Source: Halodesulfurarchaeum sp.
GTDB lineage: Archaea; Halobacteriota; Halobacteria; Halobacteriales; Halobacteriaceae
Length of the DNA stretch: 64,000 nucleotides
Direction of reading: 5' to 3'
Assembly (NCBI GenBank): GCA_034520565.1
Contig: JAXHNL010000002.1
Location: forward strand, 1,440,001 to 1,504,000
The position numbers and the translations under genes were made by a program. This document shows positions 4,673 to 51,805 of the stretch, piece by piece; position 1 is the stretch's first letter; each line of letters starts with the position of its first letter. The notes beneath the pieces are model-generated. The model ran no database searches. It was not told where the DNA came from and saw nothing but the letters and a program-made list of their open reading frames with translations.

Positions 4673-4801
4673 GTGGGGCCGGAGGGATGTTGAACTACCT
4701 GAAGACGCTCGTTTCACTCGCGTCTTCCGTCGTTGGATCCGCAAATCCACCACAAAATGGCCTCTCGCTCGGCGCCGTACGCGCCTCGCGAGAGAAGGGA
4801 G
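4673..4801 (-). repeat. tRNA-Trp 3'-end duplication module with hairpins
   Basis: gtggggccggagggat at 4673-4688 repeats 4801-4816 exactly; hairpins at 4701-4727 and 4762-4794. Confidence 0.85.
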
Positions 4802-4974
4802 TGGGGCCGGAGGGATTTGAACCCCCGATCGACTGATATCCCCGGTGCGCCTCGGCACTCCAGAGGGTCGTCATCGCGCCCGAGAGCCAGTCGAACGCTC
4901 GGTATACCAGTCTGGAGTGTCGTCGTCGGCAAACCTCTGGAGTCAGTCGCCATTCCTGGCTTGGCCACAGCCCC
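4802..4974 (-). tRNA. trnW: tRNA-Trp(CCA) with 99-nt intron (4838-4936)
   Basis: Reverse complement: GGGGCTGTGGCCAAGCCAGGAATGGCGACTGACTCCAG / intron / ATCAGTCGATCGGGGGTTCAAATCCCTCCGGCCCCA; intron at canonical position 37/38. Confidence 0.97.
4838..4936 (-). ncRNA. tRNA-Trp intron-encoded box C/D guide RNA
   Basis: C-like GACGACGA, D' CCGA, C' ATGACGA, D CCGA; guides CTCTGGAGT and GACTGGTATA are complementary to the exon junction regions (Cm34/Um39 guidance is established for the Haloferax tRNA-Trp intron). Confidence 0.85.
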
Positions 4975-10534: not shown

Positions 10535-10714
10535 TCACGCGATGTACAGGTTCCGAACTCTGTATACCATATACGCCGTGGCCAGTCCCATCAGCAAGCC
10601 GATGAGCAGGAAGAGCTGTTGCCCCGTTTGCAGCCATCCGAGGAGGAATACGATGGCCGCGAGGGCGAAGAGGAGGACGGCGGCGAGGTCGAACGTGAGG
10701 TCCGTGTCGCTCAC
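10535..10714 (-). CDS. Small two-TM membrane protein (59 aa)
   Basis: GTG start; two hydrophobic helices. Confidence 0.55.
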   Translation of the reverse strand: MSDTDLTFDLAAVLLFALAAIVFLLGWLQTGQQLFLLIGLLMGLATAYMVYRVRNLYIA

Positions 10715-10839
10715 GGAACCCACCCCACGTCGATACGCGGTTGTCGGTCGGGAGCCGGATAGTCGGTCATGTACACGTCTATCGATGGGGTGTGATTTGA
10801 TGGTTTGCTTTCCGAAACTCCGTCGAACGGTGTCACAAG

Positions 10840-10936
10840 CGGGCCGGCCGCGATTGGAAAACACGGTCGGAGCAAAGTTCCTCCCCGCGTTCAAATCCTG
10901 CCTGCCGGTTCACTCGTCACTGCGTGACTCGCTGTA
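10840..10936 (-). repeat. tRNA-Lys 3'-end duplication module with hairpins
   Basis: cgggccggccgcgattggaaaacacg (10840-10865) resembles tRNA end cgggccgggcgcgatttgaacacg; inverted GTTCAAATCC at 10889-10898; hairpin at 10913-10931. Confidence 0.75.
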
Positions 10937-11010
10937 CGGGCCGGGCGCGATTTGAACACGCGACCGTCTGATTAAGAGTCAGACGCTCTGCCGGACTGAG
11001 CTACCGGCCC
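10937..11010 (-). tRNA. trnK: tRNA-Lys(CTT)
   Basis: Reverse complement: GGGCCGGTAGCTCAGTCCGGCAGAGCGTCTGACTCTTAATCAGACGGTCGCGTGTTCAAATCGCGCCCGGCCCG. Confidence 0.97.
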
Positions 11011-11117
11011 TCACCAGTGATTGGAACGCCCCCCGACAAATACGTTCTGACTTCCCGCCGCCCAGTCTCCGTGAAGTGTCGTGGGGGTTAAGTCCGATGG
11101 CCCGGAATATGAAATGA

Positions 11118-16245: not shown

Positions 16246-17259
16246 TCACGATTCGTCGAGAAGTGAGTAAATATTCGCCTCGTAGACCGCTCGTACCCGA
16301 TCGCCCCAGTTGTGCGTGTAGGTATCGATAACGTCCGTCGCGACGTCCCCTCTGAGATACTTGACGATGCCCCGATCCCCCGTCCGATCCCGGAGATGCG
16401 TGGTGAAAAAGTGACGGAAGTAGTGGGGGGTGACGTTTTCTCCGGCCCCAGCTCCGGATTCGTACCACCCTCGGTCTCGAGCCCGGGACGTAACCAGATG
16501 GTGGACGTCGTTTCCCGTGAGACGCGTTCCCCAGTTACGTTCTGTGCTGGTAAATAGTGGCGAAGCTGGTGAGGTCGTATCCGGGCGAATCGCGAGCCAT
16601 TGGACGAGGGCGGTTCGAAGCTCATCGTCGATCGGGATGACCGTTTCGCGCTTTCGTTTGTTCGACATCTTCCGCTTTTCGCCGTTGTGTTCCTCGTTTC
16701 TGGTGGGTTCGTTCGAGACGTAGATGGTCTGTGGTCGGCCTTCCAGTTGTGGTCGGATCGGTCCTGACGGGATCGGTGTTTCGCCAAGATTGATATCTCG
16801 CAAATCGAGATTACAGGCTTCTCCCGCCCGTATACCCGTTTTTAACAGTAGTACGATGACTGCTTTCGCGAGTGGGTGGCCGACGGATCCGACGAAGGCT
16901 CTCATTTCGGGAACTGAAATGTCCCGACGGTTCGGATCCGTCGTGATTTGCTCGTCGAGTTCTTCCATTACGAGTGTCATCGGATTCTGGTCGAATATCC
17001 CGACTTCGTTCATGTACGCATAGAACCGGTGGAGGTAGGCCGCGTAACTCGCGACGGTACTTTCTGCGGCTTCATCGCGCAGCGTCGATATCCAGGCGAG
17101 ACAATCCCGGTGGGTGACTGTATCCAGTGTCGTCTCGGGGTCGAGCGAGTCTTCGAACTGGTGTAAGACGCGATCGTAGGCGTCTCGGGTGCGGTCTGAA
17201 CGGCCGTGGTAGGCCATGTCATCGAGGAAGTACTCGATTGGGTCGGTGGTTTCCGTCAT
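16246..17259 (-). CDS. XerC/D-like (XerA-type) tyrosine recombinase
   Basis: N-terminal SAM-like domain (STVASY..LHRFY); catalytic R (TGIRAGE), K (KRKRE), HYFRH, Y (DTYTH). Confidence 0.92.
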   Translation of the reverse strand: MTETTDPIEYFLDDMAYHGRSDRTRDAYDRVLHQFEDSLDPETTLDTVTHRDCLAWISTLRDEAAESTVASYAAYLHRFYAYMNEVGIFDQNPMTLVMEELDEQITTDPNRRDISVPEMRAFVGSVGHPLAKAVIVLLLKTGIRAGEACNLDLRDINLGETPIPSGPIRPQLEGRPQTIYVSNEPTRNEEHNGEKRKMSNKRKRETVIPIDDELRTALVQWLAIRPDTTSPASPLFTSTERNWGTRLTGNDVHHLVTSRARDRGWYESGAGAGENVTPHYFRHFFTTHLRDRTGDRGIVKYLRGDVATDVIDTYTHNWGDRVRAVYEANIYSLLDES

Positions 17260-51477: not shown

Positions 51478-51550
51478 AGTCCCGTGGTGTAGCGGCCAAT
51501 CATAGTGGCCTTTGGAGCCACTGACGGCGGTTCGAATCCGCCCGGGACTA
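51478..51550 (+). tRNA. trnQ: tRNA-Gln(TTG)
   Basis: AGTCCCGTGGTGTAGCGGCCAATCATAGTGGCCTTTGGAGCCACTGACGGCGGTTCGAATCCGCCCGGGACTA; TTTATT box at 51448-51453. Confidence 0.97.
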
Positions 51551-51645
51551 TTTTCTCGTAACGGAAGGTGAGCGAGATGCCCCGGGATTCGTCGGTCCAG
51601 GAAACGAGTGAAGCGCGTTTTCGCGGTTCGCATTCACCCGAGACC
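51551..51645 (+). repeat. tRNA-Gln 3'-end duplication module with hairpins
   Basis: gcggttcgcattcacccgagacc (51623-51645) vs tRNA gcggttcgaatccgcccgggact, 18/23 identical; antisense GGATTCG at 51585-51591. Confidence 0.65.
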
Positions 51646-51805
51646 GTATATCTCCGACATCGAGTCCACCTGGAACTGTAATTCCGTTGGCGCCCTCCGA
51701 ATTCTGGACCAGGAATTTGCCCAGAAAGCCATGACGAACGAACTGGACACCAACATGTGTCACTGTTTCACAAATCATTTCCTCTTGGAAATACAATCGA
51801 TTGAT

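Follow-up and report, generated by a model that had tools for sequence, protein, structure and literature searches.

The tRNA-Lys(CTT) trailer

The window analysed here is a stretch of 64,000 nt from a Halodesulfurarchaeum sp. genome (assembly GCA_034520565.1, contig JAXHNL010000002.1, positions 1,440,001 to 1,504,000 of the forward strand), and the element in question is a 97-nt unit, or module, in the trailer of a tRNA-Lys(CTT) gene (window positions 10840-10936, minus strand). The original prediction, which was made from the sequence alone, had placed four elements in a fixed order behind this gene: a hairpin with a GNA triloop, an antisense T-loop, a second hairpin and a degenerate copy of the tRNA 3' end. 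Read in tRNA sense, all four were located in that order on the minus strand at 10840-10931. The T54-N73 segment of a tRNA gene is called X in the following, and its antisense copy X'.

10937-11010, minus strand: tRNA-Lys(CTT) gene (ARAGORN; Rfam RF00005, 67.7 bits), whose X is duplicated downstream
10913-10931, minus strand: hairpin 1, CGAGTCACGCAGTGACGAG (C-GA-GTCAC-GCA-GTGAC-GA-G), a GNA triloop with flanking tandem GA
10889-10911, minus strand: X', a degenerate antisense copy of the tRNA 3' end, the last part of which (10889-10898) is the antisense T-loop GGATTTGAAC
10862-10888, minus strand: hairpin 2, GCGGGGAGGAACTTTGCTCCGACCGTG, of the GGAG..CTCC type and then GACCGTG, the variable centre of the inverted repeat, within the minimum free energy fold
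10840-10859, minus strand: terminal direct copy of X, decayed, with 18/20 positions identical

The tail copy and the antisense T-loop were far above chance, and the hairpin energies by themselves were weak in this decayed copy. The best semi-global match of the last 23 nt of the tRNA within 300 nt downstream scored 17.0; dinucleotide shuffles (n = 500) had a mean of 6.45 and a maximum of 13.5, and none reached 17.0. The 10-mer of the antisense T-loop was contained in 0 of 2000 shuffles. Hairpin 1 folded at −4.9 kcal/mol, with 40/500 shuffles equally good. The whole trailer (99 nt) was folded on both strands and gave −38.2 kcal/mol (z −1.64; 11/200 shuffles equally good) on the tRNA strand and −33.2 kcal/mol (z −0.45) on the opposite strand. 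Of the chance control that had been proposed, the part on tail similarity was thus clearly passed and the part on hairpins only marginally.

A scan of window positions 10700-11050 with the tRNA covariance model (cmscan, E ≤ 10) returned the real tRNA-Lys alone and left the trailer blank on both strands, and no tRNA was called inside the trailer by ARAGORN. A plus-strand tRNA or pseudo-tRNA, suggested by the acceptor-stem-like GGGCCGG...CCGGTTCA, was ruled out by this blank result. Other Rfam families were not matched in the window (gathering score), in the Lys trailer (E ≤ 10) or in 20 module loci (E ≤ 1).

A family of units behind tRNA genes

Copies of the last 20 nt of each tRNA called by ARAGORN were counted on the same strand within 230 nt downstream, with up to 4 mismatches. 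In the genome studied (G000), 18 of 46 T-loop-bearing tRNA genes were followed by at least one such copy, some of them by chains of two or three, and no upstream copies were found in this census. The complete genome of the same genus (G001) had tail copies behind 19 of its 42 tRNA genes, in arrays of up to five units. Units were about 85-170 nt long, with 1-5 units per tRNA tail. Their common order was tRNA, T-rich start, hairpin 1, X' (of which the antisense T-loop was always kept), hairpin 2 and a direct copy of X.

Two further units lie in the window, which makes three in total:

4673-4800, minus strand: module behind tRNA-Trp(CCA) (gene 4801-4974), decayed, with a hairpin 2 of a type unlike that of Lys; tail score 19.5, reached by 0/500 shuffles
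51551-51648, plus strand: module behind tRNA-Gln(TTG) (gene 51478-51550), strongly decayed; tail score 12.0, reached by 1/500 shuffles

The order of elements in the Trp module was identical to that in the Lys module, as had been predicted, and the same architecture was found in dozens of other tRNA tails. The Gln module, which holds an antisense-T-loop-like GGGATTCG, a hairpin and GGTTCGCATTCACCCGAGAC, is a weak, borderline case. A copy of a Val tail at window position ~38679 lies inside coding sequence and was taken as chance.

The core of the inverted repeat was written as the pattern GGATTYGARC-N15-70-GGTTCRAATC, which gave 19 matches in G000 and 0 in the reversed control. Across the class it was present in 320/401 sampled genomes, with 0 for the reversed control among the matches listed, and copies per genome ranged from 0 (81/401 genomes) to about 30. 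A pattern scan with one genome per species returned at least 119 stretches. Eighty loci were inspected; 66 were haloarchaeon-titled (many genera) and 14 belonged to other taxa. Among these 66, a tRNA was present in 56, and a copy of its last 20 nt was found 60-330 nt downstream in 48. Tail copies were also seen at 4/14 of the inspected non-haloarchaeal loci (L036, L047, L082 and L110: a Nanoarchaeota metagenome-assembled genome, Armatimonadota and two Acidimicrobiia), where each tRNA gene has an inverted T-loop pair and, 111-223 nt downstream, its own 3' end a second time; the bacterial copies include CCA. Many unit copies, that of Lys among them, are decaying.

Borders of the repeat and foreign tails

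Borders and motifs were determined in 68 modules (3 of 71 rows were dropped as tandem tRNA genes). Identity to the tRNA started 2 nt before T54 in 38 modules, 3 nt before it in 14 and 0-1 nt before it in 7. It ended 0 nt past the called tRNA end in 38 and 1 nt past in 19; for four modules the reading is 15 nt, as the following unit has the same beginning. If a crossover took place at the T-loop and the incoming DNA made the gene whole again, a repeat with just this span, T-loop 5' edge to final tRNA base, would be expected. The T stem-loop is named as one of three integration regions of tRNA genes in the part of a review of archaeal tyrosine recombinases that deals with them (PMC8371274). The insert has no inverted repeats at its outer ends, and the flanking repeat is 20-30 nt and set by tRNA landmarks, so the units do not have the layout of a miniature inverted-repeat transposable element or of a transposon.

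Two units end in the tail of another tRNA type. The module behind tRNA-Val(CAC) has a tail of the Val(GAC) type. Behind tRNA-Leu(TAA) of G001, the first unit ends in a Leu(TAG)-type tail (1 mismatch, vs 4 to its own tRNA) and the second unit carries the tRNA's own tail. A screen for foreign tails in G001 flagged 2/40 segments, the other flagged one being simply the next tRNA gene. The two foreign-type tails speak for a tail carried in by the cassette rather than copied from the target. They also suggest that earlier tail copies may serve as safe landing sites.

Insertion polymorphism and mosaicism

Unit presence was compared at orthologous tRNA genes, including those of two further congeners (G008 and G010) and of a genome from another genus (G012). 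The tRNA-Trp site is empty in G010, is occupied by a pristine 116-nt unit in G001 and holds other unit types in G007 and G011. The insert in G001 is bounded by a 30-nt direct repeat (22 nt of tail and 8 nt of flank), and the sequence beyond the second repeat is orthologous to the G010 flank. At tRNA-Lys(CTT), modules were present in G000, G008, G012 and G018 (two units in the last) and absent from G007, G010, G001 and G013, so that the module is not a fixed part of this tRNA gene. The G008 unit is pristine, with a perfect 25-nt copy, and is homologous to hairpin 2 of the Lys module in the window. In the G012 unit the antisense T-loop matches the variant T-loop of that tRNA. Between G000 and G001, unit presence differs at about ten tRNAs.

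The Lys module in the window is built of two parts with separate relatives. Its left part (hairpin 1) aligns with module 1 of the tRNA-Arg(TCT) island of G000, and its right part (hairpin 2) aligns with the G008 Lys(CTT) module and with the Trp modules of G001 and G007. The statement that structure rather than sequence defines the element was therefore too strong, since these parts show plain sequence homology. Hairpin parts are likewise shuffled between other tRNAs: hairpin 2 is almost the same in the Leu(GAG) and Val(GAC) units, whereas the arms around it are specific to each tRNA. Arrays are made up of unrelated unit types (48-71% identity), and duplicated pairs (95-99%) occur in them too. 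By sequence comparison, the Lys copy belongs to a large family, within which it is a decayed mosaic.

In G010 and G001 (L005/L006), tRNA-Lys(CTT) is followed by an integrated element and not by a module; this element opens with a small CxxC-type open reading frame (ORF; TACTGCGGTGAGGAGATCGAGGAGCC...). A similar element start was also seen after tRNA-Pro(CGG) in G000 (G000:C2:706843 onward).

Folding, strand bias and transcription signals

Unit folding was assessed in 71 rows (the 3 tandem tRNA genes still included), with 30 shuffles each, and gave a median z of −4.5; the tRNA strand folded better than its complement in 55/71. The original prediction had held that the antisense segment turns the duplicated end into a long inverted repeat, and this is so in well-kept copies. 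In 13 short cores of hairpin 2 taken from different genomes, the paired share of cells was 98.3% (shuffles 90.9%, 0/500), and for 6 pairs both bases are substituted. Covariation between the antisense and the sense T-loop position was seen in 13/13 aligned cores (9 U-A, 4 C-G), and the two also match in the G012 Lys and the His modules. The share of G.U pairs was tried as a guide to the folding strand and showed no bias (152/2968 sense vs 156/2893 antisense); the advantage of the sense strand comes from the loop and GA motifs.

The combination of tandem GA and GNA triloop, which had been noted in the Lys module, is the hallmark motif of the unit family. GA-N-CGNAG-N-GA occurred 58 times on the tRNA strand vs 2 times on the other strand of the 68 modules and was present in 45/68 units, on a genome background of 0.055 per kb; C-GNA-G made up 50/149 predicted apical loops. 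The strict GAGCGNAGCGA motif is not exclusive to tails, as 22/50 of its genomic copies lie in tRNA tails or in three islands. A looser form, GA[AG]CGNNG[CT]GAG, was discarded as unspecific (159 matches vs 117 in the reversed control). Small hairpins with the same GAGCGAAGCGAG loop were also seen away from tRNA tails (G000:C2:1395022, 1395074, 355930, 762606 and 1212856), so the mini-hairpin motif may also belong to other intergenic repeats of G000.

The pertinent part of one paper (PMC13037366) describes GCGNAGC 'mini-hairpin DNA' as extraordinarily stable in DNA and much less so in RNA, and places the motif at single-strand initiation sites of phage and plasmid DNA. By analogy, this hints, without proving it, that the units may take their relevant fold as single-stranded DNA. 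Simple hairpin-primed fold-back copying is spoken against by the hairpin 1 flanks of the Gly(GCC) unit, which are not flush with X and X'. A bulge-helix-bulge intron at 53/54 and priming by the tRNA 3' end, for which X' would be the primer-binding site, were also considered and set aside.

T-tracts of at least 4 directly follow 1/18 tRNA genes with modules in G000, vs 10/28 without modules and 6/18 terminal copies. Given this depletion, the units are probably co-transcribed with the tRNA.

Integrated elements, a cargo unit and candidate recombinases

Three integrase-type elements reside in G000, of 9 kb and 4.5 kb at tRNA-Arg(TCT) and of 20 kb at tRNA-Pro(CGG). The Arg(TCT) island and one exceptional unit behind tRNA-Gly(GCC) are laid out as follows.

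G000:C2:516872-530700 (L234): tRNA-Arg(TCT) island, with tRNA, 9-kb integrase element, 13-nt attR, module with full tail copy and 4.5-kb element
Distal part of the same island: 4.5-kb element with degraded integrase end, attR, module and decayed tail
G000:C2:902282-903965 (L233): cargo unit of about 1.7 kb behind tRNA-Gly(GCC), following one empty unit

The repeats of the three elements are 13-14 nt long and stop short of the T-loop, and their ends are unlike the units. For each element, attR is followed by a unit and a full tail copy, the final tail of the second Arg element being decayed. This second element starts immediately after the X of a module. Because the ends of the elements are unlike the units, and units lie beyond attR, the units must have pre-existed rather than being element ends. 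The start of the second Arg element shows that tail copies can serve as att sites. Modules as the ends of resident integrated elements were ruled out by the repeat length, the unrelated ends and the position beyond attR.

The order in the cargo unit is tail copy, partial hairpin 1, AT-rich stretch, a gene for 382 aa and X'-hairpin 2-X, with the same type of hairpin 2. The protein belongs to the Fic/DOC family (Fic_N, Fic and HTH (HTH_DeoR), Pfam 9.2e-16, 2.8e-16 and 3.5e-06). Its gene occupies the hairpin 1 position, and this was the sole cargo-bearing unit seen. No integrase gene lies inside a unit, the Lys unit being 97 nt long and units in general 85-170 nt.

Tyrosine recombinases (PF00589) were found at four loci in G000. 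One of them is a 337-aa ORF in the window (16246-17259, minus strand; PF00589, 32.8 bits), and a 397-aa open frame in this region has conserved counterparts in G001 and G010, about equally far from tRNA-Lys(CTT). The gene resembles a host Xer-type recombinase and is a candidate for an enzyme acting in trans, with nothing that ties it to the modules. The intron mode of ARAGORN called a spurious 'tRNA-Glu' across this gene.

The general inverted T-loop pattern gave 75 stretches in the viral contigs of IMG/VR (L152-L226). These are perfect palindromes (GGATTTGAACC-GTGGACCTCTGG-loop-CCAGAGGTCCAC-GGTTCAAATCC), often at contig ends, with a GC content of 0.50-0.65 and some of them beside CCA-encoding tRNA-Gln. 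They were rejected as vehicles of the haloarchaeal units, being a different, non-haloarchaeal family of perfect palindromes with the same inverted T-loop idea.

Interpretation and alternatives

Polymorphism, sharp borders, heterogeneous arrays, shuffled parts, foreign tails, the cargo unit, variable copy number and decaying copies together indicate a repeated insertion element, not a constant component of tRNA genes. As to its kind, we lean, with modest confidence, towards miniature non-autonomous cassettes that are inserted by site-specific recombination at the T-loop and have a layout like that of integron cassettes. The crossover would fall at the 5' edge of the T-loop, between G53 and T54, with the tRNA gene itself or a tail copy from a previous insertion as the target. 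The incoming cassette would carry its own X, which would keep the tRNA intact and make the new X the next landing site, so that arrays could grow. X'-hairpin 2-X would be the recombination site of the cassette, possibly folded as single-stranded DNA like the attC site of integrons, and the recombinase would act in trans.

Several observations weigh against this cassette model. The foreign tails number two, both are those of similar isoacceptors, and the Val case is explicable by point mutation. The G001 Trp repeat overruns the tRNA end by 8 nt, which fits target duplication better, and simple integration does not account for an X' that matches each tRNA. Hairpin 2 keeps a single orientation (the 58 vs 2 above), so X' and X are unlike inverted sites that recombine freely; G.U pairs are not biased towards either strand; and co-transcription would suit an RNA role equally well. 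Among the four PF00589 loci of G000 none lies beside a module array, ordinary integrated elements excepted, and the integron integrase model TIGR02249 scored no higher than 43.7 bits (cut-off 265) in G000, G001, G010 and G008 (4/4). No excised or free unit was seen: an intact 104-nt module had no match in PLSDB plasmids or GenBank phages (blastn, E ≤ 0.01), a search whose reach is limited by the short query, and the combined mini-hairpin and T-loop pattern gave 1 stretch only in the 2.9 million contigs of IMG/VR.

The depletion of T-tracts, and the co-transcription it makes probable, leave room for an RNA role similar to that of E. coli RtT. The units would then be functional trailer RNA, made in one transcript with the tRNA and cut free at each tail copy by 3'-end processing like E. 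coli rtT RNA. They would work as small RNAs, as decoys or as aids to processing or termination, and their dynamics would reflect fast turnover of a useful accessory or an exapted insert. This agrees with the position of the units, which are on the tRNA strand and precede the first good T-tract after the gene (1/18 vs 10/28 vs 6/18), with the strand-specific motif, the better folding of the tRNA strand (55/71) and the covarying stems, and with a repeat end that is exactly the RNase Z site, N73. We nevertheless regard it as rather unlikely, though a serious rival, since at orthologous tRNAs of one genus the units are present, absent or swapped for unrelated types, copies per genome fall to 0 in 81/401 genomes and rise to about 30, and many copies, Lys included, are decaying. 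The tail copy moreover lacks the 5' strand of the T-stem and so forms no T-arm by itself, the tRNA model is blank on both strands of the Lys trailer at E ≤ 10, and the GNA triloop is, in the description cited above (PMC13037366), a stable loop of the DNA rather than the RNA type.

Two further explanations differ from the cassette model in what they let move. If the units were passive scars, that is, minimal cis-mobilizable elements (CIMEs) left by full-size viruses or plasmids with an integrase whose interior was lost, the hairpins would be former attP arms and nothing would move now. The tRNA genes of G000 are indeed active integration sites (9 kb and 4.5 kb at Arg(TCT), 20 kb at Pro(CGG), each with a partial tail repeat), and CIMEs keep attL and attR without integration genes and accrete in tandem, as set out in the relevant part of one paper (PMC5704250). 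The ends of the three resident elements are unlike the modules, however, with 13-14-nt repeats that stop short of the T-loop, and neither the narrow size range nor the covarying structure seen across the class would survive random decay. With hairpin 2 almost the same at different tRNAs within a genome, such as Leu(GAG) and Val(GAC), and no full-size parent with module-like ends found in PLSDB, GenBank phages or IMG/VR, this origin appears improbable. Target-derived duplication, in which a transposase- or casposase-like enzyme, or template switching by replication at the heavily transcribed end of the tRNA gene, would copy the local T54-N73 segment in both directions while inserting hairpins, would explain why X' and X follow unusual local T-loops (His, G012 Lys and Pro(CGG)) and why 8 nt of flank belong to the G001 Trp repeat; the order sense-antisense-sense could also be the outcome of two template switches. 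Set against it are the two foreign-type tails, the recurrence of the same hairpin families across genera, which calls for a heritable element and not de novo events, and a repeat length set by tRNA landmarks and not by a fixed stagger. We know of no transposase partner, and we hold this explanation to be the least probable of those weighed here.

Comparison with known systems

The integron comparison behind the cassette model rests on the anatomy of attC, an imperfect inverted repeat of about 50-110 nt in which structure is more strongly conserved than sequence and the border lies between G and TT. As in integrons, arrays of up to 5 heterogeneous units stand behind one fixed site, and each unit consists of cargo (often none) and a structure-conserved imperfect inverted repeat, here a covarying hairpin; the border falls between G53 and T54, the latter followed by TC, and in one unit a gene takes the cargo position. 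Unlike in integrons, no IntI is present (43.7 vs 265 bits), the units are anchored on a tRNA gene and not on attI, their arms copy 20 nt of the host tRNA and so vary by tRNA, and nearly all of them are empty.

By this analogy, Halobacteria, and perhaps some bacteria and small archaea, might harbour an integron-like cassette system anchored on tRNA genes, an extension that we advance only tentatively and consider rather doubtful. The tRNA segment from T-loop to 3' end would take the role of attI, and the attC-like site would be an antisense and a sense copy of the same segment, folded in single-stranded DNA with GNA mini-hairpins as caps. A host recombinase or an unrecognised one, other than IntI, would insert cassettes serially, most of them empty and some with genes such as the Fic-family gene.

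Like att duplications in tRNA genes and CIMEs, the units have a direct repeat from the crossover to the 3' end that restores the gene, accrete in tandem and lack recombination genes (in the parts of PMC8371274 and PMC5704250 that treat these). They share the T-loop-to-3'-end repeat with integrative elements at the T-loop sublocation and lack the integrase gene of such elements. They also agree with the definition of a CIME in the relevant section of PMC5704250, as attL and attR are kept and genes for integration and transfer are absent. As to possible descent by decay from a parent of the type of an integrative and conjugative or integrative and mobilizable element, the ends of the resident elements are unrelated, and plasmids, phages and viral contigs yielded no parent. 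The units further differ in being 85-170 nt long and not kilobases, in their folded, conserved interior and internal antisense att copy, and in having no recognisable parent.

The repeat units of E. coli rtT end in a copy of the tRNA-Tyr 3' end, and the units here likewise end in a copy of a tRNA 3' end, which is a likeness of working and not of membership. RtT RNA (tyrT operon, RF00391) also consists of repeated units behind tRNA genes that are transcribed with them, and rtT RNA is tied to processing of the tyrT transcript. RF00391 was not matched in the window, in the Lys trailer (E ≤ 10) or in 20 module loci (E ≤ 1), and the domain of life, sequence, hairpin motifs and antisense segment differ.

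In CTXphi-type integrative mobile elements exploiting Xer, the attP(+) site is a folded single-stranded inverted repeat that mimics the target of the host recombinase, with the order site, inverted site, site and with tandem arrays. Both this order and tandem arrays are seen in the units. The target here is the T-loop of a tRNA and not dif, and the cargo gene stands between X and X' and not between X' and the terminal X; this placement, in a single case, agrees with an integron-cassette layout and not with CTX-type hairpin integration.

Implications

A full-text literature search, with subscription-only papers outside its reach, returned no description of these units. The text of haloarchaeal genome papers that came up mentions prophage-linked partial tRNAs and nothing closer. 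The nearest concepts are att duplications in tRNA genes, CIMEs (as outlined in the part of PMC5704250 cited above), integron cassettes and the E. coli rtT repeat.

The interest of the Lys copy lies in the family that it exposed. If the cassette model is true, nearly half of the tRNA genes carry small, actively turning-over cassettes that are invisible to current annotation. Because the units add tail copies, one of which has been used as a landing site, they may be confused with provirus borders, tRNA pseudogenes or partial tRNA genes, and the cassettes would shape the positions at which viruses and plasmids integrate. Should the integron-like extension be true, a cassette-array system independent of integrons, the second of its kind, would come to light, with an anchor and an enzyme that are both new. 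In genetically workable haloarchaea, the family could serve as a tractable test case of a non-coding element that targets a tRNA landmark and carries an antisense copy matched to each host tRNA.

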